The notes beneath the pieces were generated by a model. That model made no database searches. It saw only the letters and a list, made by a program, of their open reading frames with translations, and was not told the DNA's origin. Source: Berkelbacteria bacterium GW2011_GWE1_39_12 (lineage in GTDB: Bacteria > Patescibacteriota > UBA1384 > UBA12157). From it: DNA of 64,000 nt. Shown here in pieces: positions 38,683 to 63,972 of this stretch. The DNA lies in contig CP011213.1 in NCBI GenBank assembly GCA_001029735.1, positions 268,087 to 332,086 on the forward strand, given 5' to 3'. The position numbers were made by a program, and so were the translations under genes. Positions within the stretch are counted from its first letter, which is position 1. Each line of letters opens with the position of its first letter.

Positions 38683-39162
38683 ATGTCATTAGAACAAAAT
38701 GATCAATCTCAAGAATCAGAACAAGACCAAAAACCGATCGTGGTTGAAAGTGAAGATTTTGAAATTCAGGGCGTTCGCCTACAAAAACAAAACGAAGCCA
38801 TTGCAGAATCTCTCGATTCCAAAGGCCGAAAAGCTCTAGAAATATTGCTCACGTCTCCTTATGAAGAAGGGCTTGCGACTGATCGAGTCAGTTTGCTAGG
38901 AATTCTCGTAAAATATTATCAAAACGCAGAAATACAAAACCCCGGTTGCTTAGATGAAAAATTAAATGAGGCCTCCGCAAAAATTATCGAGGTACAAAAA
39001 GAAATCGCCACGTTAGAAAAAAGTGTCGAAAAATACAGCGATAATCCAAATATTTCTGTGACTTTCAAGGGTATTTTAGATCAACGAAAAGACCTTCTTA
39101 AGTCCCAAGAGGCCTTTCTCAAGGCAATGCAAATTTTAAAGGGTGAAGAAAAAGCAGTCTAA
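38683..39162 (+). CDS. hypothetical coiled-coil protein
   Basis: ORF 11 nt after trpS. No family recognised. Confidence 0.45.
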   Translation: MSLEQNDQSQESEQDQKPIVVESEDFEIQGVRLQKQNEAIAESLDSKGRKALEILLTSPYEEGLATDRVSLLGILVKYYQNAEIQNPGCLDEKLNEASAKIIEVQKEIATLEKSVEKYSDNPNISVTFKGILDQRKDLLKSQEAFLKAMQILKGEEKAV

Positions 39163-39259
39163 AAAGAAATTTTTGCAGAAAGGTGTAAACAAATTACTAC
39201 CTTTCGCGAAAGCCATGCTTTAGAGGTTAAGAAATGGGTTTTATAATTTAATATTTATT

Positions 39260-39703
39260 ATGAATGATATTAAAATCGAACAACTAAAGAGTCTAAATAA
39301 AAAAGATTATCATGATTGCATGAACTTATTGCCCCAATTATTACCTACGGTAAAATTGCCAAGTTATGCTGAATTTGAAAAAATTATTAAATCCCCAACT
39401 ACAAATTTATTTATTGCAAGGGAAGAAAGTTCCCAACAAATAATCGGTATGCTAACTCTGATTTTTTATCGAATTCCTGTAGGCCTTTGCTCACGCATAG
39501 AAGATGTAATTATTGATGAAAATCATCGAAGAAAAGGGCTTGGCACTAGTCTTTGTAATGCTGCCATCGAAGATGCTAAAAAAGCTGAGGCAATGAAAAT
39601 CGATCTTACCTCAAACCCATCAAGGGAAGAGGCTCATCGCCTTTATGAGTCGCTTGGATTTTCCATCTATAATACAAGTGTTTATCGATTAGTCCTTCAC
39701 TAA
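39260..39703 (+). CDS. GNAT family N-acetyltransferase
   Basis: IEDVIIDENHRRKGLGTSLC (motif A with R/Q-x-x-G-x-G/A). Confidence 0.8.
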   Translation: MNDIKIEQLKSLNKKDYHDCMNLLPQLLPTVKLPSYAEFEKIIKSPTTNLFIAREESSQQIIGMLTLIFYRIPVGLCSRIEDVIIDENHRRKGLGTSLCNAAIEDAKKAEAMKIDLTSNPSREEAHRLYESLGFSIYNTSVYRLVLH

Positions 39704-39732
39704 ATCTAATCAAAATTTATTAAGGAGGGATT

Positions 39733-40239
39733 TTGAATAATCCTGCAAATTTTAATCAACCAGAACAGCAACCAGCTTCCGCCCCGGCACCAGTGGAGTC
39801 AGTTTTGGTTAATGAGCCAGTTCCAGCCCAGCAAATCCCAGCCAAACCGCTTATTGATAAAACAAAACTAACTAAAGTTATCATTATTTTGTTGGTTATC
39901 TTGATCATAGCTGTCGGTGGTGGTTTAGTTTATAGCTCATATAACAATAAGGCAAAAGCTAAGGACGCTAAAATTCGGGCTGATCTTCAAGAGATGAAAG
40001 TTTCTGCAGAGAAATATTACGATGAACATACAAATTCTTACAAAGATTGGACACCGGATCAAGGTCTAATTGCAGATGTAAAGAGCCAAGGCTCGGAGAT
40101 CCAATCCGAGATTACCGATCAACAATTCACTATCACCGCTTTACTTCCCAAAGCAAAAAATTATTATTGCGTTAAAAGAGATGCAATCATCGAAGTGGAC
40201 CAAACTACTCTCCAATCACTCTGTCCAATTACCAAATAA
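39733..40239 (+). CDS. pseudopilin/GspG-like (type IV pilin fold) protein with a non-canonical N-terminal TM anchor, paralog 1
   Basis: TTG start after AAGGAGGG. After the TM helix, NKAKAKDAKIRADLQEMKVSAEKYYDEHTNSYKDWTPDQGL parallels GspG ([38 protein letters not shown]). C-terminal Cys pair (YYC...LC). Confidence 0.5.
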   Translation: MNNPANFNQPEQQPASAPAPVESVLVNEPVPAQQIPAKPLIDKTKLTKVIIILLVILIIAVGGGLVYSSYNNKAKAKDAKIRADLQEMKVSAEKYYDEHTNSYKDWTPDQGLIADVKSQGSEIQSEITDQQFTITALLPKAKNYYCVKRDAIIEVDQTTLQSLCPITK

Positions 40240-40247
40240 GAGATTAA

Positions 40248-40715
40248 ATGAACAATCAAACTGATCAAATACTAACCCAACAGCCAATTAGTACCCCTCC
40301 GGTGAAAAAGCCTACGAGTTCTACGGCCGTTGTCTTGATTATCATTGGATCGATCATAGGGGTAATGATTATAATCGGTATTTTATCTGTAATGGTAACC
40401 GCTTCACTTGGCGGAGCAAAAGACAAAGCCAAGGATGTTAAAATCAAATCTGACGTGCACCAATTGAGGGCAATGGCCGAAACCTATTATAGCGATAATA
40501 AAGATTCTTACACTGGCTGGAAGCCAGACCAAGGAATCTTAAGCGATTTGGCCAACCAGAAATCAACCTTACAATTTGTCGCCAAAGACCAAAAAATAGC
40601 CCTCTTTGCTAAGCTAACAACTGACAATAATTATTACTGCAGTGATGAAATTCACTCCATTGTGGTTTCAGAAGTTACGCTTGATAAGGGTTGCCCGTTG
40701 CCCGTTATCAATTGA
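40248..40715 (+). CDS. pseudopilin/GspG-like protein, paralog 2
   Basis: Same architecture as paralog 1 (~35% identity): GAKDKAKDVKIKSDVHQLRAMAETYYSDNKDSYTGWKPDQGIL, C-terminal YYC...GC. Confidence 0.5.
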   Translation: MNNQTDQILTQQPISTPPVKKPTSSTAVVLIIIGSIIGVMIIIGILSVMVTASLGGAKDKAKDVKIKSDVHQLRAMAETYYSDNKDSYTGWKPDQGILSDLANQKSTLQFVAKDQKIALFAKLTTDNNYYCSDEIHSIVVSEVTLDKGCPLPVIN

Positions 40716-40771
40716 CAACTCAACCATAAGACTTTAAAATGTACCTAGATCAACACAAAGGAGACGATCGT

Positions 40772-40888
40772 ATGAAAAAGGTATTTTTAATGTTAGCCGC
40801 GATTGCCGTCGTTGTTTTGATATGCGATGGCGTCAAAAAATTCGCCTTAGATCAAGCTGATCTTGGCCTGGAAATGCTGGACGCATAA
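40772..40888 (+). CDS. 38-aa TM peptide (MKKVFLMLAAIAVVVLICDGVKKFALDQADLGLEMLDA)
   Basis: AAAGGAGA RBS 7 nt upstream. Not in ORF track. Confidence 0.45.
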   Translation: MKKVFLMLAAIAVVVLICDGVKKFALDQADLGLEMLDA

Positions 40889-40898
40889 GGAGAACAGG

Positions 40899-41021
40899 AT
40901 GAAAAAAGACGCGGACATTTCTTATTGGACTGCCTTTTTATGTCTGGCTTTCATCATCGTTTCGATTTTTATCGATTCAGCTAATAGCTTTCTAAACCGA
41001 ATCCTTCACAAAACCGCTTAA
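40899..41021 (+). CDS. 40-aa TM peptide (MKKDADISYWTAFLCLAFIIVSIFIDSANSFLNRILHKTA)
   Basis: TAAGGAGA RBS. Followed by terminator. Not in ORF track. Confidence 0.45.
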   Translation: MKKDADISYWTAFLCLAFIIVSIFIDSANSFLNRILHKTA

Positions 41022-41035
41022 CTGCGGTTTTTTTA
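41012..41035 (+). terminator. aaccgc-ttaact-gcggtt + T7
   Basis: Read directly. Confidence 0.6.
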
Positions 41036-42392: not shown

Positions 42393-42672
42393 TTTTTTCC
42401 TTTCAATATTTTAAGAAAATTCCGCAACAAGCTCAAAATTCACCAAAAATTTTCTTTCTTGGCTATAGTTTCATTTTACTTCCATGAGAATCATTTTACA
42501 AATATGAAAAAGCCGACGAAAATCCGCCGGCTGTCTCTCAAGTTCTAAGCAATCGGGACGACTTACGCGTTTTTTTACTCCGTGCGCTCGAAGTGCTTAA
42601 AAATTGAGGATGAAGATCCGATTGTAATACAGTTATTGCATTGATTGGCCTGTACAGGTCGGATCATCCCTG

Positions 42673-43089
42673 TTACAGGCTAAGACGATACTTTGAGTCA
42701 GTCCAAACCTTTTTCTGAGTTACGTATTCGGTTCGACCGACCCCAAAGGGTAGAACACCTGACGAGGCGGGCCTATCAATCCCCATCAGGTTGAAACGAT
42801 CAGCCAAGTTTGCAACTTGCTCCGCTTGAAAGCCGGGAGCCAAGGCAACATGGCCGGTCGTCCAGACGAACCCTACCAGGCTAAGACCGTAGAAGCCCGA
42901 TAGAGCGAGCAGGTGGAACGGGGTGAGCGACTCTGAAGCAACGAAATACATCCGTAAACCTCCCGCGACCAGCTCGGACAAGTGATAATTTCGGCACTCG
43001 ATTGCCGACATCGGAAATGATCCGACAAATCGAATATAGATTTTTCGCTCATCAGTGTCAAGATCTGTCAAGCGGTTATTAAACGCCAA
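42673..43089 (-). CDS. hypothetical protein (138 aa; GC-rich)
   Basis: TTG start. 11-nt overlap with upstream partner. Confidence 0.4.
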   Translation of the reverse strand: MAFNNRLTDLDTDERKIYIRFVGSFPMSAIECRNYHLSELVAGGLRMYFVASESLTPFHLLALSGFYGLSLVGFVWTTGHVALAPGFQAEQVANLADRFNLMGIDRPASSGVLPFGVGRTEYVTQKKVWTDSKYRLSL

Positions 43090-43543
43090 ACTCGGTCAGG
43101 TAGTTGTTGGCAGCTGTAATGGCCAGAAAATAATCATCTTTGTCTGACATCATCCCGTCTATTTCAAAACACATCGAGCTCTGCAGGTCGATATTATCTC
43201 CATGAATACGCGCTTCTTGCCCTAGATATATTGTCTTGAAATAACCTCGTTTCATTACCTCATCGAAAGATTCAGGCGGCAACTCAAATGTATCATTAAT
43301 CATGATCACTTTCCCGTCGGCCCGGATATCTATTAGAAAACCAAAAGCACAGTCATCAATCACGGCGATAAATAGGTTGCGGGAAGGAATCAGGCCACAA
43401 TTTGATAAGGCTAACTTCTTGATTTCGTCATACGTCTCTTCGTCCAACCCGCAATAAATTCCTGGACCGGAATTAGTGTTTTCATCTCCTTCAACACATT
43501 CGAGGAAGGCCAAAGTTTTCTCGGGTTGAGTCGCAATCAACAT
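43079..43543 (-). CDS. hypothetical protein (154 aa; GC-rich)
   Basis: ORF divergent from pyrG. No family recognised. Confidence 0.45.
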   Translation of the reverse strand: MLIATQPEKTLAFLECVEGDENTNSGPGIYCGLDEETYDEIKKLALSNCGLIPSRNLFIAVIDDCAFGFLIDIRADGKVIMINDTFELPPESFDEVMKRGYFKTIYLGQEARIHGDNIDLQSSMCFEIDGMMSDKDDYFLAITAANNYLTEFGV

Positions 43544-51697: not shown

Positions 51698-52819
51698 TTA
51701 AACCTGTTTAATTATTTTTAATGTTTTTTCTGCGGTTTTTTGCCAAGTAAAACCTTGAGCGACGACTTTTCCTTTTCGAATCAAGTCAGCCCTTAAGGTT
51801 TCATCTTCTAAAACCTTTTTTATTTTATCACTTATCTCTTCTGTTTTAAAGGGGTCAAAATATAAAGCTGCGTCTTTGTAGATTTCCGGCAAAACCGAGT
51901 TGTTTGCCGCTACCACCGGTGTCCCTGCTTGCATTGCTTCAAGTCCTGGCAAACCAAACCCTTCGTAAAGAGACGGAAAGACAAAAACAGTCGCCAACTT
52001 ATACCAACATGACAGGTCTTCGTCTGTGACGAATCCCGTCAAAAGAATATCATTTTTGACTCCACTCTTGTCAATACTTTCAAAAAGTCGATGGTGCTCC
52101 GGGTCTACTTTGCCAACCAAAACAAGCTTCGACGGAATTTGCGACTTCACTTTGGCAAACGCATCCACCAAAGTGGGCAAGTTTTTATGCGGCCTGTACT
52201 GTCCTACATACAAAACGACCTGCTCGTTGATTTTATACTTTTTCTTTAGTTCCTCGACATTTTCTTGCCTACATTCCAAGACAGATTTATCGTCCGCAGC
52301 TTCATAAATGACCTCTACATTAGCCGGATCGATATGAAAAATATCCACAATATCTCGTTTTGTGTTTTCAGATATAGCGATAATCTTAGCCGCATTCTGA
52401 CAAGCACTTTTAATTACATAATTAAATGCCATTTTTTTAATCGCATTTGTGCGCTTAGCGGTATCGGGAAACTTAATTAGCGTCAGGTCATGGATTACAG
52501 TGATAAATTTCTTTTTGTAATTGACTGGATGGTTGAAATTTAAAAAAAGCATTAGATCCGGTTTTTCTGCCTCGAAAATTTTTGGCAGTTTAAGCTGCTC
52601 AGCTAAAGAATAATGTTCAATCTCTGTAATTACTACTTCAACATTGGAATTTTTACTTTCGTTGGTCAGTAAAAATTCATCAGCATCTTTTTGCGTCATA
52701 AAAAAAATATACTCGTTTTTTGAATCGAGCTGTAACAGATTCTTGATTAAGTTTTGGCTGTATCGCCCAATCCCCGCTACCTCCGAACGATACATTCTGG
52801 CATCAATCCCAATTTTCAT
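51698..52819 (-). CDS. glycosyltransferase family 4
   Basis: C-terminal PSLYEGFGLPGLEAMQAGTPVVAANNSVLPEI (E-x7-E GT4 motif). Confidence 0.85.
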   Translation of the reverse strand: MKIGIDARMYRSEVAGIGRYSQNLIKNLLQLDSKNEYIFFMTQKDADEFLLTNESKNSNVEVVITEIEHYSLAEQLKLPKIFEAEKPDLMLFLNFNHPVNYKKKFITVIHDLTLIKFPDTAKRTNAIKKMAFNYVIKSACQNAAKIIAISENTKRDIVDIFHIDPANVEVIYEAADDKSVLECRQENVEELKKKYKINEQVVLYVGQYRPHKNLPTLVDAFAKVKSQIPSKLVLVGKVDPEHHRLFESIDKSGVKNDILLTGFVTDEDLSCWYKLATVFVFPSLYEGFGLPGLEAMQAGTPVVAANNSVLPEIYKDAALYFDPFKTEEISDKIKKVLEDETLRADLIRKGKVVAQGFTWQKTAEKTLKIIKQV

Positions 52820-53229
52820 GTTGTTACCACTGTTTCCTTAAAAACCCAGAATTTATTGGCAGAAAAGTTCCAAACCATCACGACTGCAGTTGCAATTAAT
52901 AACCCGTAAAAATCAAAGATCCGTAAAACTGAAACGGTCAAATACATAATTGAAAGATTTAAGCCGAAACCGACCGTGGAAACAATTAAAAACTTTCCGA
53001 ACTCTTGAGTCTTTTGCTCATTGGCCGATTTAAATGTCCATCTACGGTTCCAGGTGTAGGAGTTAATAACTGAAACCAGGAATGATACGCCTTTGGCCAC
53101 TATATAATAAATACCCAAATACCGGGTTTCAACAAAATAGATCCCGGCATCAACAATAAATGAAGAGAAGCCGACAACGCCAAATTTCACAAACTGACGA
53201 ACCATTTTGCTTTGCAAAAAATCTTTCAT
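52816..53229 (-). CDS. GtrA-family membrane protein (glycan flippase accessory)
   Basis: 4 TM, FVKFGVVGFSSFIVDAGIY N-terminus typical of GtrA. Confidence 0.75.
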   Translation of the reverse strand: MKDFLQSKMVRQFVKFGVVGFSSFIVDAGIYFVETRYLGIYYIVAKGVSFLVSVINSYTWNRRWTFKSANEQKTQEFGKFLIVSTVGFGLNLSIMYLTVSVLRIFDFYGLLIATAVVMVWNFSANKFWVFKETVVTT

Positions 53230-53309
53230 AATTTCCTCAGGAATTTACGCGCAAAACTTTAGTTTTACTATAGTCATAATATATCTTATTTACTAATCTT
53301 TCTCAAATT

Positions 53310-53340
53310 AAAAATCCCCCTGCAATAATGTACAGGGGGA
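53310..53340 (-). terminator. ccccctg-caataatgta-caggggg preceded by A5
   Basis: Read directly. 3' of the 53354 gene. Confidence 0.55.
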
Positions 53341-53353
53341 TAAATAGCTCCGA

Positions 53354-53992
53354 TCAGACCCATCCGTGAATCAGATGGTGAACTCGAACCAACTGTTCAC
53401 GCTTGAGCCAAGCGGCTCGGTTACGAGTGTGCGGTTGGATAGACTCGTTGTCATAGACTTCAGAGTCCCAGACCGCCGCTGTCTCAATGCCTTCTACCGC
53501 CAGCATCCGGACAATCCGGTTGGTCATTCCCGCGTGATCCACCAGGTAAACGGATTCATCGGATTTGATGAACTGCTTGCCTAACTGAATCACGTTTTTA
53601 GACGTGAAGTACTTCTCGGGATCCTTGGCCGGTGGCCAAATGCCATTTATTCGGTGGCGATTGGCATAAAACCAATACCGATCGAGGCCAAAGAGAATTT
53701 CCCACTGGCAAACGATCGGCAGGATGAGCTGCGCGGCAATCTTCTGAGCTTTTTGACCAAAAAGCCGATTAGGCTCTCCGGGATCGAAACTCAATCTCAT
53801 TGCCTCGACTGTCCGATAGTCGTCGCAACCATTGGCCTCGTAGATTGCTCTGACTTTCCCTAAATCGGCGTCTGTGTAAGTGTTCCGGCCAAAAGCTTGG
53901 CCAAAAACTACTTTGGCGTCACGAGCACACTGTCTAGTCGATGGTCTCATATCTAAGACGTTCAAATATGCGACTAGCCCAACTGTTTTCAT
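53354..53992 (-). CDS. hypothetical protein (212 aa; GC-rich island within glycan cluster)
   Basis: AAGGAGG RBS 8 nt before ATG. No family recognised. Confidence 0.5.
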   Translation of the reverse strand: MKTVGLVAYLNVLDMRPSTRQCARDAKVVFGQAFGRNTYTDADLGKVRAIYEANGCDDYRTVEAMRLSFDPGEPNRLFGQKAQKIAAQLILPIVCQWEILFGLDRYWFYANRHRINGIWPPAKDPEKYFTSKNVIQLGKQFIKSDESVYLVDHAGMTNRIVRMLAVEGIETAAVWDSEVYDNESIQPHTRNRAAWLKREQLVRVHHLIHGWV

Positions 53993-54087
53993 CGTCGCTG
54001 CCTCCTTTCAACCATTGTCTGCGCTTTAATTAGCGACATAAAACTATAGCATCTAACCTGAGGAATGTCAATATGCTAATCGTTATT

Positions 54088-54807
54088 TTAGTACTTTTTT
54101 GCCCAAGTGTTTTTTTTAATTATCCAGAGGTCGTTCAAAGTGGCAAAAGTCATAAAATTTGTCACTCGAGAGTTTTCAACATTATACCAGTCAACCGCCA
54201 CTTCTTTAACCTTGTAGCCATTTTTGCGGGCGATCACTAGTAATTCCATGTCAAAACCCCAGCGATCGATGGTTTGTTTTGGAAAGATATCGAGAACTGC
54301 TTTTTCAGAGAAAAGCTTGAAACCACATTGAGTATCTTTTGATTTTATTCCTAAAAATAAGCGAATCAGTAAGTTTCCCCCTCGAGAAATAAAACGGCGA
54401 AATAGTGGCTGGGCCGTCTTAATTGAATCTTTTCTAAGGTATCTCGAGCCAACAATTATTTCACTTTGTTTTATATATTTCTGTAATTTTTTAATTTCTG
54501 ATATATCAGTCGAATTGTCAGAGTCCATCATTAAGCGCCACTGTCCTTTGGCTGCCAACATGCCGGTTTTTACCGCATACCCCTTGCCGCGGTTATTTTT
54601 ATAAGAAACAATTTTAAAATTTGGCCAGGTCTTGATCAATTCGTTAACTTTTTTACGAGTATTATCTGTTGAGCCATCGTTAACGATAATTACTTCACCA
54701 TCGTATTTTTGCTTCTCCAAAAACGCCTTAAGGATAATTAAGGTGTCAAGCAGCCTTTTTTCTTCATTGAAGGCCGGCAAAATAATTGATAAATAAGGTT
54801 TATCCAT
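54088..54807 (-). CDS. glycosyltransferase family 2 (polyprenyl-phosphate sugar synthase-like)
   Basis: LSIILPAFNEE.R.......IVNDGSTDNT...DSDNS...E (DXD) pattern. Confidence 0.85.
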   Translation of the reverse strand: MDKPYLSIILPAFNEEKRLLDTLIILKAFLEKQKYDGEVIIVNDGSTDNTRKKVNELIKTWPNFKIVSYKNNRGKGYAVKTGMLAAKGQWRLMMDSDNSTDISEIKKLQKYIKQSEIIVGSRYLRKDSIKTAQPLFRRFISRGGNLLIRLFLGIKSKDTQCGFKLFSEKAVLDIFPKQTIDRWGFDMELLVIARKNGYKVKEVAVDWYNVENSRVTNFMTFATLNDLWIIKKNTWAKKY

Positions 54808-54915
54808 AATTTCTTTCTAAGAAATTTCCGCGACAAGCTTTAGCTTGGCTATAATTTCCAAAAAAATTTCCGCGACGATCAAGCTTGTCTTAACTCAAAA
54901 CTCTATCATATTTTT

Positions 54916-56532
54916 TTAATTTTGTCCAGTAGTTAAATAGTCCCAATAATAAATTGTTTCAAATTGGCCAGTTGGCGTTTCTTTTAAAAACCATTTAAAC
55001 GGAATACCTTCTTCATTATGGAGCTTTAAGAAGTACTGTTGCGCACACATGGCAATCAAGCCGTTAACAGGTTTATCCGGTAAAGATTTTACTTTGATAT
55101 CCTGAATTGAGAGCGGCCAGGACGAGTAACAGTCAAAATAAACTTCGTTAATATTTTTTTCGCTTAAAACCTCTGAAAAACGATTTAAATTTTGCCCCCA
55201 GTCGTAATTAGAATCTGATATCTGGAGAGTCCCGTCTTTAATGCCAGATTTGTTCATAAAGGAAAGATAGTCTGGAAAGGTTAGAAGATTGGTTAAAATA
55301 GCTGCAATCGTTAAAATTAATATCACAGCCTTAAGCGATTTATTTCTGGTCAAAATCAAACCGCCGGCAAGAATATAAAGGAATGGATAGATAACCAAGA
55401 TATGTCTAACCCCAATATCGATATGCCCCGTCATGCTAAAAAGAAAATAGAATAACGGCGCTAAGATTAAAAGTAAAACCGCATGCTTTTTGTGATTTAT
55501 TTTTCTTAGATTTTTAATTACTGATAAAGCTAAAATTACAACAATAGCCAAGGGCGTTTTGTACCAAAAAGCATAAGGAAAATAGTCCCAAAAACCCATT
55601 TGGCTAAATTTGCCATTTAGGTAGGCCAAATGACCGTATTTATTGTGATCGGTCACCATGCCAAAGCCGTCCCAAAATTTCATTAGAGGTAGAATAAACC
55701 ATTTGGCCAGGTTTTTGAACCAACTGAGCCCGAAGAAGTTGTGCAGATTATATTGGTAGAAGGACCAGCGCCAATCAAACCACATGGAAACAATATAGAT
55801 CAACCAAACCATAAAAAAGGCAATCGCCATACTTACTAGAAGCTTTGATATTTTATCCCAATCCAGTTTTTGTTTTTTTAAAAAGATAAATAAGAAATAA
55901 AGCAAGGCAGCGAACAGTAAAACAGTGAGCCCTGAAAATTTGCTTAACAACAGTAAACCCGTCGCCAGTCCAAAATAAATGGCGTTTTTCCAAGAAGATT
56001 CTTCAATAAAGTTACAAAGAAGATACAAATTTAACAAAGCACTGAAAGTGATGATTACATCCGTTGTGGCCAAATGCCCGTTCGCCAATAAGTTGGGGCA
56101 AATTGCCGCCAAAAAGGTTGAAAACAAAGCTCCGTTGGCCCCCCAAAGTTTCTTTGACCAGAGGAAAACCATCGCCATCGTTGCCAAAAACAACAAAATC
56201 ACTGGAAAACGACCCCAGAAAATTATCCTTTCGGCACTATTTCCCATTTGGTAGATAAATTTATAACCGTAATCATACTGATCGAGAGCGCCTGGCGGCT
56301 CTTCCGGAAGCTTAGGATTTACAAAAACTTTAATAAATATTCCCGAAAAGTCGTTCATTAAAGGCGGATGCTCGGTATTATATTTATAGCTACCTTTAAC
56401 TATATGCAAATAACCTGCAGACAGATGAACAGGTTCATCAGCGGTAATAGAGTCGGTTTTGGCCAAATAAATCATTAAGCCAAAAGAGGCTACAAATATT
56501 AGAGCCAGAGTAATCTTTTGCCATAACTTCAT
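54916..56532 (-). CDS. polytopic membrane glycosyltransferase, GT39/ArnT/PMT-like (lipid-carrier-dependent)
   Basis: ~13 TM. N-terminal loop ITADEPVHLSAGY with the DE-motif typical of GT-C enzymes. Partner of the neighbouring GT2 synthases. Confidence 0.55.
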   Translation of the reverse strand: MKLWQKITLALIFVASFGLMIYLAKTDSITADEPVHLSAGYLHIVKGSYKYNTEHPPLMNDFSGIFIKVFVNPKLPEEPPGALDQYDYGYKFIYQMGNSAERIIFWGRFPVILLFLATMAMVFLWSKKLWGANGALFSTFLAAICPNLLANGHLATTDVIITFSALLNLYLLCNFIEESSWKNAIYFGLATGLLLLSKFSGLTVLLFAALLYFLFIFLKKQKLDWDKISKLLVSMAIAFFMVWLIYIVSMWFDWRWSFYQYNLHNFFGLSWFKNLAKWFILPLMKFWDGFGMVTDHNKYGHLAYLNGKFSQMGFWDYFPYAFWYKTPLAIVVILALSVIKNLRKINHKKHAVLLLILAPLFYFLFSMTGHIDIGVRHILVIYPFLYILAGGLILTRNKSLKAVILILTIAAILTNLLTFPDYLSFMNKSGIKDGTLQISDSNYDWGQNLNRFSEVLSEKNINEVYFDCYSSWPLSIQDIKVKSLPDKPVNGLIAMCAQQYFLKLHNEEGIPFKWFLKETPTGQFETIYYWDYLTTGQN

Positions 56533-56547
56533 GAGTCTAATCTATTA

Positions 56548-57636
56548 CTACTTTGAGTATTTAGCAATAATCGTTTGAAAAACGCTGTAGGCTTTTCTAT
56601 TAGCCACCATTTGACCAACGCCATTTGGACCATCATCAGCTTGGATCAGCCCATAGCGGTCAGTGTAGCCACCCTTAGCGTGATTAGGAAGATCAGTTAG
56701 CTCAAATGCGAAAAATCCTTTTATCGAGCCTGAATTATAAGCCCACTCTGCCATATCGCCGATAAACTGAGCTTGTTTATCCTCATTCATTTTAAATTCG
56801 GTACCGTCTTTATCCGGTCTTTGACCAACTTCAACCAGCATAACTGGTTTATTAAAAGAATTTAACCTATCCAAAATATTAGTTCCGTCGGCTAATTTAT
56901 TATCTTTCATTTGGCCCATGTCAGAAAACCAATCCCAGCCGATTATATCGTACATAACCTGTTTTTCAGCCATGATCTGCAAAAAGGCATATTGAGTCCA
57001 TTGCCCCGAAATAACTGTTTTAGCTGCAGGATCACCTGCTTTTACGCCGGCGCTCGCCCCTTTTAACCATTGGCAGATCTTTTCGGCCTTAGCTAAATTA
57101 TAATGATCGATTTTATCTCCTGAAAATTCCGCGCCTTTAAGTGACCAACTTGTGATCTCGTTCTCTAATTGATAATAATCGACTCTACCAACTTCTTCCT
57201 TGGCGATACTATAAGCTAAATTATAACCATCGGTATACGGATCAGCCGAACGAGTCATATCGCCTTTTTGGTTAATCATTATATATGGACGCATGTCTGT
57301 ATCTAAAATCTCGTTAATAATGGCATTATTGACGGCTAGTGGATCTTCTTTGCCATTAAGTACACCACCCGGCTCCCATGTCACCCGAACATAATCGAGA
57401 TTTAATTTTTTGGCTTTATAAATTTGCTCGGAAAAAACTTTTGGCTGAAAATTTGGTACCAAAGCAAAGGCACGAGTAGTTACACCCCAAACAAAAGGTT
57501 TATTTTTTCTAACAGTTTTAGCCACTTCCGTCGAGGTGGTCGATGTATTGTTATTGCCAGAAAAATACCGCCATAAAAACCAACCAGCGGCCCCAACTAT
57601 AACAATTAAAGATAAAACAATGAGTACTTTTTTCAT
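56548..57636 (-). CDS. membrane-anchored glycoside hydrolase, GH5-like (TIM barrel)
   Basis: N-terminal TM, then YQLENEITSW (acid/base NEP-type motif) and MLVEVG (nucleophile Glu). Confidence 0.5.
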   Translation of the reverse strand: MKKVLIVLSLIVIVGAAGWFLWRYFSGNNNTSTTSTEVAKTVRKNKPFVWGVTTRAFALVPNFQPKVFSEQIYKAKKLNLDYVRVTWEPGGVLNGKEDPLAVNNAIINEILDTDMRPYIMINQKGDMTRSADPYTDGYNLAYSIAKEEVGRVDYYQLENEITSWSLKGAEFSGDKIDHYNLAKAEKICQWLKGASAGVKAGDPAAKTVISGQWTQYAFLQIMAEKQVMYDIIGWDWFSDMGQMKDNKLADGTNILDRLNSFNKPVMLVEVGQRPDKDGTEFKMNEDKQAQFIGDMAEWAYNSGSIKGFFAFELTDLPNHAKGGYTDRYGLIQADDGPNGVGQMVANRKAYSVFQTIIAKYSK

Positions 57637-57657
57637 GCTCCTCCTTTTGAAAATTTA

Positions 57658-58344
57658 CTAATCAATAAACCTATATTTTATTAAAACCCAAATCGCTTGC
57701 ATACCGTCACGCCAGGTTATTTTTTTGCCATCTTTGATCGATCGGCCATGATATCTAATTGGCACATCAACGATTTCATAGCCACGTTTAGCAACTTTTG
57801 CCGTCACTTCCGGACAAAATTCGAAACGCTGGCATTTTAAAGGTATTTTTTTAATCACTTCAGACCTAAAAGCTTTGTACGCTGTCGCCTCGTCACTAAT
57901 ATGAGTTCCATAAAGCAGATTAGCAGTGAAGGTCAAAATCTTATTAGCGACAAAATTTGGCCATCTCATACCAGTAATTTCACCTTTAAATCTTGAACCA
58001 AAAACCACTTTGGCGTTTTCTTTGATAAACGGCTCCAAAATCGTCGGATAGTCATCTACAGTATACTCCATATCAGCGTCTTGAATCAAAATTATGTCGC
58101 CGGTAGAGATTTTTAGGCCTTTTCTGATCGCCGCACCTTTTCCCTGATTTTTCGCTTGAAAACAAATTTTAATTTCTGAATCAAGCGAATACCTATTAAT
58201 TAATTGTTTCGTCTGATCGACCGAGCCATCATCAACAATAATAATTTCTTTGTCCATGGTAATTGGCGCTTGTCTCACCGCCTTGATAACCTTCTCGATA
58301 TTTTTCTCTTCATTATAGACAGGAATGATAATCGATAATTTCAT
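57658..58344 (-). CDS. glycosyltransferase family 2 (dolichyl/polyprenyl-phosphate mannose/glucose synthase-like)
   Basis: LSIIIPVYNEEKNI.....IIVDDGSVDQT...QDADMEY. Confidence 0.85.
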   Translation of the reverse strand: MKLSIIIPVYNEEKNIEKVIKAVRQAPITMDKEIIIVDDGSVDQTKQLINRYSLDSEIKICFQAKNQGKGAAIRKGLKISTGDIILIQDADMEYTVDDYPTILEPFIKENAKVVFGSRFKGEITGMRWPNFVANKILTFTANLLYGTHISDEATAYKAFRSEVIKKIPLKCQRFEFCPEVTAKVAKRGYEIVDVPIRYHGRSIKDGKKITWRDGMQAIWVLIKYRFID

Positions 58345-59726
58345 GACTGGATAAGATTCCTCTCAATTTTATGGAGCGTTTTTTGTTTTTTTGCCAAGTA
58401 AAACCCTAAGACAAACAAGGCTACAAAAATCACTATCCACAACAGGTTAAGGTTTAATCCTAATTTGTGCTGAAGCGGAAACCATTTTTCAAAATCATAT
58501 GGAAAGAAGCTCTTCATAATATTCAGATTATCATAGAGATGTTTATTAATAACTGAGAACGGATCCATCTTTCCTCTTAAGCCAAGCATAAGAGACGGCA
58601 CCATAAGTAAACCAAAAAACACTCTAAAAAACCACTTAAACGGCAAAATTAAAACCTCTGCCAATGCCGGCGCTAAAACCGGTAGAATTGTCATAATCAT
58701 TCGGGCCGTTGGCGCCTGACCGCCGCTCCAATCACTGAAAATGCCTGTCATAAACCAAAGAAAACCGGCTAAATATGTGACTTGCCAAAACAATTTACGG
58801 TTATTAACGAATAATGCGCCTAGGCCTAAAAAGGCCGCCAAATAAATTGGCGCTGAAGCAATTAATCCATCTTTAAGGTTAACTAATAGCCCGATCAGGC
58901 CTTCATACTGAGAAAAGAAACTAGAGGCTTTTTCTTGGCCAGAAAAGATTGAACCATAAGCGTATAAATTAAACCCAATCACTAACAAGATACTAGCTAA
59001 AAATAAGCTAACCAAAGTTTTGTTTTTAACCCCTAGATTCCAAAAATCCTTTAATTTATTTAAACGAAATTTACTGAAATCTATGCCCGGATAAAGAAAC
59101 AAAGGCACAAAAATCAAATATTTAATATGAATCCAAGGTAAAAATGCTACTGCCAAAGAGCTCAACCAATTAGGTTCTTCCCATTTCCTCAGCGCGTAAA
59201 TAACACATAAGGCAGCAAGTGGTTCATAAAACAAAAAATAGGTTTGAACGGCGATCGGCAATGAGAGAGCCATAACAAATGGCACGAATAAAGATAAATA
59301 AAAACCATAGCCTTTTTCTCTTAACCAAAGAAAAACATTGGCTGTTAAAGTAAGAACGATAATATTCTGCAAAATCACCAGAAAAAGTCTGGGATTATTC
59401 GAGAGGAAGAAAAACGGAGTTAAGATTATAGGCCAGCCAAGCCCATGCTTTGGAAAATGTTTGGTATCAGAAATATCAACTGAGTGAACCTTAAAATCAG
59501 GTGACGGAAAAAAATTTAAAAAGTGTTTTGTGTTCTGCTCTTGAATTAAGTTCGCTGTCTTAAAGGTGGCCAAGCTGTCGGCAATAGACATATAACTCGG
59601 TTCGTCACCGACCAACGGAATAGTATTAATAAATCTTCGATCCCATCTTAAGTTAAACAAAAAAAGAACCAGAAAAACTGCTCCAATAAAAACCGTTTGA
59701 ATTATTCTTGTTTTTCTTTTGTCCAT
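58341..59726 (-). CDS. hypothetical polytopic membrane protein (probable GT-C-like glycosyltransferase)
   Basis: ~12 TM. Start uncertain (ATG 59726 or TTG 59762). Overlaps neighbours, so translationally coupled. Confidence 0.45.
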   Translation of the reverse strand: MDKRKTRIIQTVFIGAVFLVLFLFNLRWDRRFINTIPLVGDEPSYMSIADSLATFKTANLIQEQNTKHFLNFFPSPDFKVHSVDISDTKHFPKHGLGWPIILTPFFFLSNNPRLFLVILQNIIVLTLTANVFLWLREKGYGFYLSLFVPFVMALSLPIAVQTYFLFYEPLAALCVIYALRKWEEPNWLSSLAVAFLPWIHIKYLIFVPLFLYPGIDFSKFRLNKLKDFWNLGVKNKTLVSLFLASILLVIGFNLYAYGSIFSGQEKASSFFSQYEGLIGLLVNLKDGLIASAPIYLAAFLGLGALFVNNRKLFWQVTYLAGFLWFMTGIFSDWSGGQAPTARMIMTILPVLAPALAEVLILPFKWFFRVFFGLLMVPSLMLGLRGKMDPFSVINKHLYDNLNIMKSFFPYDFEKWFPLQHKLGLNLNLLWIVIFVALFVLGFYLAKKQKTLHKIERNLIQS

Positions 59727-60904
59727 CTGCTCAAGGATAACATAAACCCAAATAAAAGCCAAAAGATCAAACTAAGATCATTTTTGAAATATGGGGTGTC
59801 CACTAACCCCTGCAAAACCAGAGCTGTCATGGCCGCCAATAGCATCTTTGATCCATCGTTTTTGAATTCTGAAAATCCAGTTCTATAGAAGAAAATCAAA
59901 AGCCCAATAAAGGCAATAAAACCAAATAAACCAGTTGTTAAGTAAAACATTAGAAAAACATTATGAGAAGAAAGTGCTAAGGGCGAAATAAATTCTTTAA
60001 AATTAACCCGGTCTTTCGTTAAATCGGTAAAAGCATTTTGATAGCTTCCTAAACCAACCCCCAGAATCGGATGGTCTTTAATCATTTCGATAGATGTTTG
60101 CCAGATTTGCCAGCGTACATTATTACTGGAAACAACTCGGCCGCCCGAAGCCTTAAAGTTTGGTCTGAAAGCATAAGCGCTACCTAAAATTGCGATGGCG
60201 ATAAGAATAAATAATCCGATTCTAAGATAAGATTTAGCTTTAATTTTAGACCAAAAATGCAAAATTAATAAAAAAGTTATACCTGCAACAGTTGCAAGAA
60301 GACCAGATCTTGAACCTGTTAGATAAATACCGATGATGTTTATTAAAACAACGGCGCCGGCAATAATTGCCATTGGATATTTTTTCTTTTGCAATAAACC
60401 TACGCCGTAACCAGTTAGCAAAACTGTAAGCGGCGTCAAAAATAATGCGACATAGTTAGGATTATAACCAAAAATACCAATCACTCGCCCATCGACCGTC
60501 ACATTATGCATCAATTTTTGCACGATACTATAAACACTAACAGCAAGACTTGAGCCCATAAAACCATAGATTGTCCAACGAAAATCTTTCGGTTCTAAAT
60601 AGCACATGATCAGCCAAAAAACCAAAATCGGATCAAGAAAATAAGCTTTAAATTGACCTAAAGCTGCAGATTTAGCAGGGCTCACATACACGGAAACCAT
60701 AGCGGCGATCAACAAAATACCGATTATTAGCCAAACGCGTTTTTTTATCTTTAACATTTGGCAATAACCTAAATTAATTAGACCATAAAAGAAAATTATA
60801 TAGATGACGATTTCTAAAAGAGTTGTCGGAATCCCGCCAAAAATGTCAAAACGGATTAAATAAGTAGGCAAAAGAAGGGCGATTAGCCCTATCAAATATT
60901 TCAT
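59702..60904 (-). CDS. O-antigen ligase/polymerase-like (Wzy_C) membrane protein
   Basis: ~11 TM with large periplasmic loop near the C-terminal third (GSRSGLLATV...). Confidence 0.55.
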   Translation of the reverse strand: MKYLIGLIALLLPTYLIRFDIFGGIPTTLLEIVIYIIFFYGLINLGYCQMLKIKKRVWLIIGILLIAAMVSVYVSPAKSAALGQFKAYFLDPILVFWLIMCYLEPKDFRWTIYGFMGSSLAVSVYSIVQKLMHNVTVDGRVIGIFGYNPNYVALFLTPLTVLLTGYGVGLLQKKKYPMAIIAGAVVLINIIGIYLTGSRSGLLATVAGITFLLILHFWSKIKAKSYLRIGLFILIAIAILGSAYAFRPNFKASGGRVVSSNNVRWQIWQTSIEMIKDHPILGVGLGSYQNAFTDLTKDRVNFKEFISPLALSSHNVFLMFYLTTGLFGFIAFIGLLIFFYRTGFSEFKNDGSKMLLAAMTALVLQGLVDTPYFKNDLSLIFWLLFGFMLSLSRWTKEKQE

Positions 60905-60993
60905 TCTATATCTATTCTACTGCCGTCATTTTTTAATTGCAAAGAATTAAAAAACCCCATATCTTATGATACAGGGCTATAAATAGTTAGCGA

Positions 60994-61188
60994 TCATCTT
61001 TCTCCGAGATGAATGTGTTTCACCGCCGGCGGAAGCTTTGGCTTGCCGTGCGGCGCCGCAACTTTCTTATTCAGATCGCTCACAAAAGCCTTGGTTGCTC
61101 TCGACACAACAAGACATGTTATGACGATCGTCATGAACGCCAATAGAACGAATACGAATACCATCCATCGCTTTACACTTGGTGTCAT
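60994..61188 (-). CDS. small membrane protein (64 aa; GC-rich)
   Basis: AAGGAGG RBS 7 nt upstream. One TM helix. Confidence 0.45.
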   Translation of the reverse strand: MTPSVKRWMVFVFVLLAFMTIVITCLVVSRATKAFVSDLNKKVAAPHGKPKLPPAVKHIHLGER

Positions 61189-61217
61189 CGCTCTTCCTCC
61201 TTTGGATCACCGGCTTA

Positions 61218-61328
61218 TCATTTGATCTGTAAATTCGCTAGATAAACTCCGCAGACAGCAGAAACTATCAAAAGTACTGCTAAAATAATTTCTCCTATCG
61301 TCCATCTGTTTCTCCAAAATTTTCTCAC
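61218..61328 (-). CDS. possible 36-aa TM peptide (GTG start: MRKFWRNRWTIGEIILAVLLIVSAVCGVYLANLQIK)
   Basis: AAGGAGG 7 nt before GTG. Not in ORF track. Speculative. Confidence 0.3.
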   Translation of the reverse strand: MRKFWRNRWTIGEIILAVLLIVSAVCGVYLANLQIK

Positions 61329-61440
61329 CCAAATTCCTCCTTAACGCGTTTTGTTTCCTAAATTGTCAATAAACATTTGTAATAACTTACAACCCTACAA
61401 TATAATTACCCTTTTGTCAAGATTATATACCTTTTTATAG

Positions 61441-61473
61441 CAAAAGCCCCCGAAGCATATAGCCACGGGGGCT
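61441..61473 (-). terminator. agcccccg-N13-cgggggct preceded by A4
   Basis: 8-bp GC stem 3' of the 61494 gene. U-tract short. Confidence 0.4.
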
Positions 61474-61493
61474 CTCTTGGCACATTAGCGCCG

Positions 61494-62009
61494 TTATTCG
61501 AAATGAATGTGATCTTTGTAGATCCTATCGACGTAAACTGTCAGATTAGCCTCGCCATTCTTGCTGAAAGTCGCCGCAGTTGAAACTTGGTCTGATTTTC
61601 CCCAATTCTGGTGATTCTTAACTTGGCCAGTGATTGTAATTTCCTCTCCTGGATTTCCAGTCAGAATAAGGCAAAACGAAGATCTTGCCCTCTCTGGGAG
61701 GAGCAATAGCATCAAACCCGGATAGATACATGATTGAGATGGAAATTGCCCCATTCTATCACCAACGGGTTCAATTGTGACCAAGACGCGCTGGACTCTA
61801 CCTTTTATCGTTAATTCCAAACTCGGTCTCTGCGTAACCGACGGGTGAAGCACAATCTTCTCGTTTTTCTTCGCTTGAAGAGCGTGGTCTGCGATCCGAT
61901 TAATCATTACCGGAATGACAACAACCAGTAATATCATAACAATCAAGACCCCGATTGTACCTTCTTTATTGGTAATGCCACGATTGTTTCCAAAACCAGA
62001 TTTTCTCAT
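61494..62009 (-). CDS. hypothetical membrane-anchored protein (171 aa; GC-rich)
   Basis: ORF with N-terminal TM. No family recognised. Confidence 0.45.
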   Translation of the reverse strand: MRKSGFGNNRGITNKEGTIGVLIVMILLVVVIPVMINRIADHALQAKKNEKIVLHPSVTQRPSLELTIKGRVQRVLVTIEPVGDRMGQFPSQSCIYPGLMLLLLPERARSSFCLILTGNPGEEITITGQVKNHQNWGKSDQVSTAATFSKNGEANLTVYVDRIYKDHIHFE

Positions 62010-62185
62010 TTAGATGCCTCCTACATTTGTCTGATTTTTTTGTGTTTCTGGCAATCTTCCGCCAAATTGTTAACACAAAACTATACCCCAAAAACGTCGC
62101 TTTGTCAAGACAGATAGAGCATTAAATCTTGAATTTATCTCAAAGAATCAATTATAGATACCGGATCCGGTTGCCAACCGATCCG

Positions 62186-62641
62186 GTATGACATTTTATC
62201 TAAAAACTTGTCATCCCGGACCGGCTGCAGCAGGATCCGGGATCCAGTAGACTTGTCATCCAGGGCTTGACTTGGGATCCAGATCTTCCCAGCCCGGATT
62301 ATCTTTTTCTATTAGTTCTATCTTCCATATCCTTTCCCAATTTTTGAGCTGTTTTTCTCTTTGAAGAGCTGATTTTATGTCATTGGTTTCTTCAAAATAA
62401 ACTAGACGGTTCACATTATATTTGCCGGTAAATCCATCTGAAGTTTTAGTCTTGTGTTGATAAATTCGCTTTGAGAGATCGGATGTGACTCCAATATACA
62501 GAGTACCGTTTCTTTTACTGGCCATGATGTAAACATAGTAATGTTTCATGGTTCTTTCTTTTGTCATTCCGGACAGGTCGACGCATGATCCGGAATCCAG
62601 GATAGATACCGGATCCTGCTTTCAGCCGGTCCGGCATGACA
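62186..62641. mobile_element. GIY-YIG nuclease gene flanked by ~35-bp terminal inverted repeats (TTGTCATsCCGGACCGGCTG....CAGGATCCGG) plus extra TGTCATyCC motif copies
   Basis: Left TIR 62207-62241 cttgtcatcccggaccggctgcagcaggatccggg. Right TIR (reverse complement of 62607-62641) attgtcatgccggaccggctgaaagcaggatccgg, about 31/35 identical. Additional motif copies at 62186 (rc), 62252, 62560. Confidence 0.55.
62256..62549 (-). CDS. GIY-YIG nuclease family protein (UPF0213/COG2827-like)
   Basis: MKHYYVYIMASKRNGTLYIGVTSDLSKRIYQHKTK...NRLVYFEE...AL..EKQLK.W (GIY..YIG..R..QH..E..N). Alternative ATG at 62567 lies inside the repeat motif. Confidence 0.8.
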   Translation of the reverse strand: MKHYYVYIMASKRNGTLYIGVTSDLSKRIYQHKTKTSDGFTGKYNVNRLVYFEETNDIKSALQREKQLKNWERIWKIELIEKDNPGWEDLDPKSSPG

Positions 62642-62649
62642 ATTCAGTA

Positions 62650-63972
62650 TTAGGCTTTTTCGCCGCGTAAAATGAGGTTTTGGACAGCCATTAAAAGACC
62701 GACGAGAATCCAAATATGGATAATATATAAGGTTGAAAAGAAGTTATACTGAACCATTACTCCGACAAATGCCGCAAAAAGCCCGAACATAGTGGCGCGT
62801 AAAAACGGCTCTTTCGCCCGCTTTAAGGCTGCGAAACTTCGCCAAATAACCACCAAAAGGACCAAACCATAGGAAATCGCCCCAACCATACCAGTTTCAG
62901 CCAAAAGCTCGATAAACTGATTATTTACAATATCCCATCCTGTTTTAGGTGCAACTGGCGGATAGTCTTTGGCATATGGACCATAATTGCCGATTCCGAT
63001 CCCCAAAACCGGATTTTTCTTAAAAGCCGCATAGGCAAAATCAAAAGTACTTAAACGCCCTTGGACAGATTCGCTGCCGGTTTTCGCATCCTGCAAAGTG
63101 GCATGGGAAATAAAGTTATTTAAAGCTCGGCTTTCACTCTTCAGAAGAGCAAAATAAACTCCGCCTGCCACCGCCAAGAAGATGACAAAGATTGTAACTG
63201 TTTTACGGGTAAAAATTTGTTTAAAATAATAGATCGCAAAAAGTAGCAATGTGACTGCCAGCCCTAAATATCCGCCTCTGGAAACTGTTAAAACAAAATT
63301 AAGGAGCAAAACTGCCATCAAACTGATTAGCCACCAGCGCTTAAAAATGTTAACGTGCCCAAAATAATAAGCGAGCGCTAGTGAAAGCGGAATCAAGAGA
63401 TAGTTGGCAAAATACAGCGGCTCCATTGAAAGAGCTTGAATACGTGGAAAACCAAAAACCTTCGAATCATAACCGACCTTTAACTGAGTAATTGAATTTG
63501 GAAGTCCAACAACATTACCGCCAAATTGGAACAAGCCAAAAAGACCAATAAAACTGGCCGAAATAAACAAGGCCCAGATTGTTTTCTCGAGAGCCGATTT
63601 ATCTGGAATCATATTGACAGTCATAAATGAGAGAACGATGGTAAATAAGGAGAAAATTATCACTTCGATGCCGCGAGACAGGTTCAAAGCTTGGGTCAGT
63701 GAAAGCATTAAAGCAATAATAAACAACGATATTGGCCAAGCCAACGCATTCGGCTGAATCTTCCATTTTTTACCGTTAAACATTGAAGCCAAAAGCCAAG
63801 TTAGGATCGTTAAAAAACCAAGGATTGTATTAATTTTGACATCAACTCCCCCAAAAGCCAGGGTAGGAACACGTTCAAAGGGCAAGAAAAAGACGATGAG
63901 CAAAAATCCCAAGAATGGGTTTCTAAAAGTGAAATAAGATAAGATAATACCACCCAATAATAGCGGTACCAA
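62650..63972 (-). CDS. O-antigen ligase/polymerase-like (Wzy_C) membrane protein
   Basis: ~12 TM, 440 aa. N-terminus may lie beyond the ORF-track Met. Second Wzy_C-like gene in the cluster. Confidence 0.55.
   Translation of the reverse strand: MVPLLLGGIILSYFTFRNPFLGFLLIVFFLPFERVPTLAFGGVDVKINTILGFLTILTWLLASMFNGKKWKIQPNALAWPISLFIIALMLSLTQALNLSRGIEVIIFSLFTIVLSFMTVNMIPDKSALEKTIWALFISASFIGLFGLFQFGGNVVGLPNSITQLKVGYDSKVFGFPRIQALSMEPLYFANYLLIPLSLALAYYFGHVNIFKRWWLISLMAVLLLNFVLTVSRGGYLGLAVTLLLFAIYYFKQIFTRKTVTIFVIFLAVAGGVYFALLKSESRALNNFISHATLQDAKTGSESVQGRLSTFDFAYAAFKKNPVLGIGIGNYGPYAKDYPPVAPKTGWDIVNNQFIELLAETGMVGAISYGLVLLVVIWRSFAALKRAKEPFLRATMFGLFAAFVGVMVQYNFFSTLYIIHIWILVGLLMAVQNLILRGEKA

Follow-up and report, generated by a model that had tools for sequence, protein, structure and literature searches.

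We analysed a stretch of 64,000 nucleotides (nt; hereafter, the window) from the genome of Berkelbacteria bacterium GW2011_GWE1_39_12, a member of the Candidate Phyla Radiation (CPR; Patescibacteria) with a G+C content of 40%, and in it two adjacent paralogous genes whose products resemble type IV pilins. The first open reading frame (ORF1; 39733-40239, plus strand; AKM82151.1 / UT28_C0001G0342) encodes a putative pilin-derived, signal-anchored protein of 168 amino acids (aa). The second (ORF2; 40248-40715, plus strand; DD449_03555) encodes its 155-aa paralog, the sequence of which is the same as that of a Candidatus Berkelbacteria hypothetical protein. The two products share 36% identity across 114 aa (BLASTP, E = 5e-25), in agreement with an initial annotation of this DNA, which had described neighbouring proteins of these lengths with about 35% identity; the peptide segments quoted there were found in both ORFs. 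Inspection of the sequence showed a Shine-Dalgarno (SD) element, AAGGAGGG (39722-39729, plus strand), with the TTG start codon of ORF1 4 nt downstream. The assigned start is credible, because the ortholog in another family locus, L001, has kept both the identical SD element and the TTG codon.

ORF1 begins with a polar tail (aa 1-42; 39733-39858, plus strand) that is predicted to be cytoplasmic and disordered, with a predicted local distance difference test score (pLDDT) of 53-63. The tail is followed by a basic patch, KTKLTK, and an uncharged hydrophobic helix (aa 43-68; 39859-39936, plus strand), in which Ile50 occupies the position of pilin Glu5. In ORF2 the hydrophobic anchor covers aa 22-56 (40311-40415, plus strand), where Ser35 corresponds to pilin Glu5 and Gly44 to pilin Gly14. 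The polar N-termini described in the initial annotation are present, at about 48 aa in ORF1 and about 26 aa in ORF2 rather than the 30-45 aa given there. According to the alignments, the equivalents of pilin positions -1, +1 and +5 are Lys45, Leu46 and Ile50 in ORF1, and Leu30, Ile31 and Ser35 in ORF2. Neither protein has a short basic leader with Gly (or Ala/Ser) at -1, and neither has Phe or Met at +1 or Glu at +5. A search of all six frames near both genes found no prepilin motif of the form [GA][FM..][TSA]L[I..]E, and the list of open reading frames held no alternative start that would give either protein a short leader. These searches, together with the conserved start of ORF1, rule out a wrong start or a frameshift that conceals the motif. 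The earlier claim that both proteins lack G/(F/M)TLIE and Glu5 is borne out, and no corrected start or frame was found that would turn them into ordinary pseudopilins.

Pfam gave nothing meaningful for ORF1 or ORF2. The NCBIfam model of GspG, TIGR01710, was matched (E = 2.8e-5), but its cut-off is 88.85 bits and the scores were 24.2 (ORF2) and 14.1 (ORF1); as they fall so far short of it, membership in GspG was rejected. A profile built on the two paralogs matched the N-terminal helices of solved pilins (geopilin 9egp, E = 1.9e-4; PulG 5wda, E = 3.7e-4), its position 14 falling on pilin Glu5, and a profile of canonical CPR pilins matched the two ORFs of the window at E = 2e-26 and 9e-21. Both proteins resemble the N-terminal helix of pilins far more than chance would allow.

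An exhaustive HMMER scan of 1.84 billion representative proteins at E <= 1e-3 returned 4560 matches, and the best 150 of these mix canonical GFTLIE pilins with relatives that lack the motif. Three kinds of protein can be told apart among these best 150: 89 canonical CPR pilins of about 130-150 aa, with an N-terminus of the form MxxxKG/FTLIELLVVIAIIGIL; 37 motif-less proteins of 142-182 aa, in which a polar tail, a patch rich in Lys and a long helix free of charges are seen; and 23 longer proteins, mostly fusions of a Zn-ribbon and an RDD domain according to Pfam, in which the pilin-like domain lies C-terminal to other membrane modules. When 26 motif-less proteins (alignment A2) were compared with 35 canonical pilins (alignment A3) by hhalign, the probability was 100% (E = 2.9e-39, 115 columns), and the aligned region ran from the canonical IIGIL (mature pilin residue 12-14, approximately) to the last Cys. 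The same 26 family members did not match PF08334 (T2SSG), nor did the proteins of the window, and they left the Pfam-A pilin models unmatched at E <= 0.01 save for one hit to ComP_DUS (E = 0.0077). In a neighbour-joining tree of the domain, drawn without support values, one clade held 33 of the 37 short motif-less proteins, and the fusions branched at several points among the canonical pilins, which suggests repeated anchor swaps. These longer proteins comprise P0006, P0024, P0025, P0039, P0061 and about 18 more of the HMMER matches, and proteins of this kind were also noted at L009 (4095-5765) and L023 (208-1884). A word-indexed protein search matched ORF2 to itself alone and the family profile to seven proteins, and is too insensitive here. 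None of the sources searched gave a name to any family member, and our literature searches found no account of signal-less pilin relatives in CPR bacteria. By sequence comparison, then, ORF1 and ORF2 are members of a clade descended from type IV pilins, found in Berkelbacteria-like CPR bacteria and not described before.

The N-terminal layout of ORF1 and ORF2 is that of the family: tail, basic patch, and an uncharged hydrophobic helix continuous with the pilin alpha1C helix. Across 32 members the tail has a median length of 32 aa (range 13-57) and consists to 61% of Pro, Gln, Asn, Ser or Thr; the uncharged segment, with a median length of 28 aa (range 18-31), contains not a single Asp or Glu. 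About 32 relatives are, like ORF1 and ORF2, devoid of the cleavage and assembly signal (Gly-1, Phe+1, Glu+5). By our reading of the N-terminal flanks, Gly stands at the anchor boundary in four of the 32. Between ORF1 and its ortholog P0002, identity is 47% in the tail, with insertions and deletions, 73% in the transmembrane segment and 61% in the domain; the predicted disorder of the tail fits this low identity and the length changes. Synonymous sites are saturated in this pair, so that no ratio of nonsynonymous to synonymous rates could be given.

The AlphaFold2 (AF2) model of ORF1 (mean pLDDT 84.8) has a long helix at 43-98 (56 residues), a short helix at 110-118 and four strands, and that of ORF2 (mean pLDDT 79.7) a long helix at 25-83 (59 residues), a short helix at 95-103 and three strands. 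In both predicted structures an alpha/beta head is packed on alpha1C, as in the pilin fold, so that the structure prediction proposed as a check of the initial annotation did not yield the non-pilin fold that would have overturned it. Comparison with GspG chains gave figures of 3.8 (PulG) and 4.3 (EpsG) for the ORF2 model and of 4.7 (EpsG) for the ORF1 model; the structural neighbours were PilA4 of T. thermophilus (6xxd), PilE of P. aeruginosa (4noa) and PilV of N. meningitidis (5v23). The parallel with the post-helix region of GspG drawn in the initial annotation holds in that the helix motif is similar; the nearest relatives, however, are type IV(a) pilins rather than GspG, whose cut-off is not reached.

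The alpha1C helix and head occupy 39937-40236 in ORF1 and 40416-40712 in ORF2 (both plus strand). Each protein contains the C-terminal Cys pair already noticed in the initial annotation: Cys146 (codon 40168-40170) and Cys164 (codon 40222-40224) in ORF1, Cys131 (codon 40638-40640) and Cys149 (codon 40692-40694) in ORF2. The two Cys are invariant in the family and align with the invariant pair of canonical CPR pilins, in the place of the pilin C-terminal disulfide region; the bond itself is predicted. Formation of extracellular disulfides is plausible in CPR bacteria, because MdbA-like oxidoreductase and VKOR families are enriched in them (PMC6744442).

The distribution of conserved positions differs between the clade and true pilins. 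Pairwise identity of the N-terminal helix (alpha1N) is 30% in the motif-less family as compared to 78% in canonical CPR pilins, and its entropy is 2.05 bits as compared to 0.60 bits. The head, on the other hand, is 36% identical in the family and 26% in canonical CPR pilins. The conservation usual in pilins is therefore reversed in this clade, with a variable helix and a conserved head. A helix of 56-59 residues is predicted in ORF1 and ORF2, against about 53 in a pilin, but its hydrophobic half, highly conserved in pilins, is 30% identical in the family, against 78%. This reversal suggests that the packing constraint of a filament core has been lost and that the head has gained a conserved job.

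Within the window we found no gene for a canonical pilin or for a component of a pilus machine. The window and seven other loci, of related genomes (L001, L002, L007, L011, L012, L014 and L017), share a trpS/pgm neighbourhood, with the order nucleotidyltransferase (minus strand), trpS (plus strand), one or two family genes, sometimes a GNAT acetyltransferase gene, a convergent phosphoglucomutase/phosphomannomutase (PGM/PMM) gene and CTP synthase. Two family genes are present in the window and in L011, where they are in tandem, and in L014, where one lies on each side of trpS. What is conserved is a unit of one or two family genes, with trpS on one side and the phosphoglucomutase gene on the other. 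This slot is evidently a variable insertion site. In the window, the interval 38683-39703, between trpS and ORF1, carries a 159-aa acidic, coiled-coil-like ORF without a family match and a GNAT acetyltransferase gene; L001 is without both, and in L012 the GNAT gene sits after the pilin-like gene.

Elsewhere, the family member of L003 is found between a LemA gene and an M48 peptidase gene, and that of L015 beside a gene for a G5-domain protein. The M48 peptidase gene of L003 lies two genes further downstream. The same locus contains, two genes upstream of the family member and with LemA between them, a 270-aa protein (4821-5633) with a long polar N-terminus and a single membrane helix, a linker rich in Ser, Thr and Pro, and a weak T2SSG-like head; no prepilin motif was seen in it. 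L019 is the sole context, among the 11 that were examined, to join the family to a true pilin gene: its family member (54-506) ends 22 nt upstream of a gene for a 216-aa canonical-type pilin (528-1178), which has Ser at -1 (KRKS/FTLIE) and a Pro-Gly-Thr-Leu repeat. Canonical pilins in L006 and L008 lie within pilB-pilT-pilC-pilin-pilD-minor pilin clusters. We also observed that canonical Berkelbacteria pilins in L006 (5013-6110) and L018 (4001-5107) have Ala instead of Gly at -1 (MKKA/FTLIE), in clusters of the order pilB-pilT-pilC-pilin-pilin-pilD-minor pilin. A search for PilT returned 120 other genomes and not GW2011_GWE1_39_12, a result that is uninformative on the pilus machine of this bacterium.

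Downstream of ORF2, on the same strand, are two short reading frames that are putatively coding. Micro-ORF 1 (40772-40888, plus strand; AKM82153.1 / UT28_C0001G0344), which appears to be lineage-specific, encodes 38 aa and micro-ORF 2 (40899-41021, plus strand) 40 aa, each with one hydrophobic segment. The initial annotation had listed two single-helix peptides with strong ribosome-binding sites and a terminator, and all these elements are in place. Both ATG codons are preceded at 5-7 nt by an AGGAGA SD element, that of micro-ORF 2 overlapping the stop codon of micro-ORF 1; strong pairs of SD and start are fairly specific in the window, where 30 of 59 begin ORFs of at least 80 aa. A hairpin with T-runs on both strands (41010-41031), between convergent transcription units, is probably a bidirectional terminator. 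A promoter-like element, TTGACA-17-TAAAAT (40712-40740, plus strand), which is defined only by a match to 11 of 12 consensus positions, lies 30 nt upstream of micro-ORF 1. The two peptides had been described as unannotated; this is correct for the 40-aa product, called in no record that we found, and not for the 38-aa product, which is in GenBank although absent from the third-party annotation record. The N-terminus of micro-ORF 1, MKKVFLMLAAIAVVVLIC, resembles a signal peptide with a terminal Cys. Assignment as a lipoprotein was rejected, as Ile, which is not known as a standard lipobox residue, immediately precedes the Cys, and the only NCBIfam lipoprotein match had an E value of 0.055.

The micro-ORFs are absent from all the syntenic loci that show the corresponding space (L001, which is the closest, L002, L007, L011 and L012). 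L001 has a comparable terminator hairpin as the sole element between the pilin-like gene and PGM/PMM, and L002 has unrelated small membrane proteins in this position. The product of micro-ORF 1 is alone in its 90%-identity cluster and that of micro-ORF 2 is missing from a collection of 15 billion proteins. A single-protein metagenome scan for a close relative, bearing on micro-ORF conservation, found nothing; scans with alignment A4 returned four genome and six metagenome loci, mostly with canonical pilins, and no close relative. It is plausible, but unproven, that the micro-ORFs form a genome-specific bicistronic unit, apart from the pilin-like genes.

Two other features of the window were observed. 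The interval 42600-43090, with an ORF at 43079-43543 (minus strand), is an island of 55-56% G+C. Its minus strand folds with z = -4.06 (none of 100 shuffles was as good) and its plus strand with z = -2.0; no match to Rfam was found even at E <= 1. In the syntenic loci L002 and L007, the stretch of about 1.15 kb that separates PGM/PMM from CTP synthase is lacking. A structured RNA of unknown kind, or a small insertion, may account for the island. At 51698-63972 (minus strand) there is a long glycosylation cluster with genes for GT4, GtrA, two GT2, a PMT_2-type mannosyltransferase, a GH44-like protein and two Wzy_C membrane proteins (O-antigen ligase / O-oligosaccharyltransferase type); the products could glycosylate surface proteins.

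Taken as a whole, the family is derived from pilins and is not a pilin in the functional sense, since it lacks the sequence features of a substrate of the prepilin peptidase PilD and stays below the GspG cut-offs, and yet has the predicted fold and the Cys pair of pilins. We consider it likely that ORF1 and ORF2 are uncleaved, non-polymerising, bitopic proteins in which a pilin head is held by a membrane anchor and the class III signal has been replaced. They would insert like prepilins, with the N-terminus and tail in the cytoplasm and the C-terminus outside; this orientation is favoured because the basic patch is on the N-terminal side and the Cys pair in the head. Cleavage or methylation by PilD would not take place, and the lack of the Phe1/Glu5 register would prevent the proteins from joining a filament as ordinary subunits. 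Neither cleaved nor polymerised, each would therefore remain a permanent bitopic membrane protein, in which a helical stalk of about 55 residues presents the pilin head, clamped by its disulfide, on the outside of the cell. The head would most likely serve a conserved binding function or contact with the envelope rather than the formation of a fibre. The pilin part of the earlier interpretation, that is, pilin-fold domains on a conventional anchor that are no PilD substrates, is in this way supported; the four-gene module that it also proposed is not.

Several points weigh against the uncleaved-anchor interpretation. That the proteins stay uncleaved, how they sit in the membrane and that they are displayed at the surface are all inferred. 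The context of L019, where a family gene stands directly before a pilin gene, leaves room for a tie to the pilus machinery. The clade comes from a neighbour-joining tree to be read with the caveat that it bears no support values, and the canonical comparison set consists of the top matches to the query profile, which may inflate the helix conservation measured for canonical pilins.

An alternative that we regard as rather unlikely is that the proteins are uncleaved but work within the pilus machine, as a terminal or anchor subunit docked under the last subunit or as a resident mimic that tunes assembly, retraction or signalling. Such a role would agree with the retention of alpha1C and of the C-terminal half of alpha1N (GIL.A.V.VSL), which are the parts through which pilins pack on each other, with the L019 gene pair and with the wide occurrence of type IV pili in Berkelbacteria. 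However, ten of the 11 contexts have no pilus gene nearby, eight being at the trpS/pgm position, and a helix identity down to 30% is unexpected for a subunit packed in a filament core. A bolder form of this idea, with a similarly small chance of being right, is that of uncleavable pilins which the type IV pilus machine still recognises and whose tail cannot be shed; they would be a built-in stop or anchor subunit at the base of the pilus, or a membrane-resident mimic by which its length or dynamics are set. We know of no type IV filament system with such a component; if true, this could bear on the way in which ultra-small CPR cells keep hold of their hosts. It is improbable that the proteins are still secreted as odd minor pilins, with an unusually long leader that PilD or some other peptidase would remove at a non-canonical position. 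There are Gly residues in the hydrophobic segment, at a site resembling Gly-1 in P0012, P0049, P0063 and P0082, but they are at no fixed position, the candidate Gly is 5-6 residues deep in the membrane and not at the cytoplasmic interface, none of the 32 members has Glu at +5, and the residues that align with -1, +1 and +5 in ORF1 and ORF2 are those given above (Lys45/Leu46/Ile50 and Leu30/Ile31/Ser35). Even less probable is cleavage of the hydrophobic segment by signal peptidase I, as a Sec signal peptide, with release of a soluble pilin-like head: small residues (S-A, G-A) do occur at the C-terminal end of the hydrophobic run, but the SxxSAR motif is shared with canonical pilins, where it is uncut, a run with a median of 28 aa after a tail of 13-57 aa is unlike a Sec signal, and AF2 predicts one continuous, high-confidence helix through the site.

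Two further explanations concern the gene set rather than the processing of its products. The common strand, the tight spacing, the strong SD elements and the stop/SD overlap between the micro-ORFs would be expected if the paralogs and the two micro-peptides made up one four-gene surface module, as initially proposed. The micro-ORFs, however, are private to this genome, being missing from the syntenic loci (among the collected proteins, micro-ORF 1 is a cluster of one and micro-ORF 2 is not represented), and the 11/12 promoter-like site follows ORF2 and precedes them, so that we give the module little credence. That the genes are decaying pilin pseudogenes would account for the loss of the defining motif, and is scarcely conceivable: more than 30 clusters at 50% identity have intact frames, the two Cys do not vary, and head, synteny, start codon and ribosome-binding site are conserved. 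The pseudogene explanation is effectively refuted by these conservation data.

The anchored pilin-head proteins that we favour can be set beside several known systems. With the canonical type IV(a) pilins of CPR and monoderm bacteria they share a long alpha1, a small antiparallel sheet and the C-terminal Cys pair. They differ in having a polar tail of 13-57 aa in place of the short leader, Gly-1, Phe+1 and Glu+5, and in gene position, the family genes mostly lying outside pilus operons. With GspG of type II secretion (TIGR01710, PF08334; PulG 5wda, EpsG 4lw9) the similarity is that of the helix motif after the membrane segment. The CPR fusions of Zn-ribbon, RDD and pilin-like domains (P0006, P0024, P0025, P0039 and P0061) also carry a pilin head and alpha1C on a non-prepilin anchor; in their case the anchor is the multi-pass RDD domain, with the zinc ribbon in the cytoplasm, and they branch outside the motif-less family. 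The alignment proteins PilN and PilO (GspL and GspM in type II secretion) have a short cytoplasmic N-terminus, one membrane helix, and an external helix followed by a small alpha/beta domain. Their overall layout resembles that of the family, but the external domain of the family is not ferredoxin-like. TadG/CpaL of Tad pili, which we compared by description only, likewise carries a pilin-like module at its N-terminus without being a bulk subunit of the fibre, but is large, contains vWA domains, is encoded in the tad operon and is placed at the tip or base of the pilus. To our knowledge, TadG is not processed by the prepilin peptidase. The CPR 'Pam' pili (2026 preprint) are built of immunoglobulin-like donor-strand pilins, unrelated to the family.

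The class III signal defines type IV pilins, and assembly is held to require Glu5 and the processed N-terminus. For CPR bacteria, contact with host cells through the surface is vital, and much of their envelope proteome is unannotated. The present finding reveals neither a new machine nor a function; what it offers is a structural label and a testable topology for "hypothetical proteins" that current domain libraries miss, and it draws attention to parallel anchor swaps, such as the Zn-ribbon/RDD fusions and the T2SSG-like head on a linker. The existence of a conserved clade that kept the body of the pilin and dropped the class III signal suggests that a pilin head can be put to new use as a fixed module on the cell surface.

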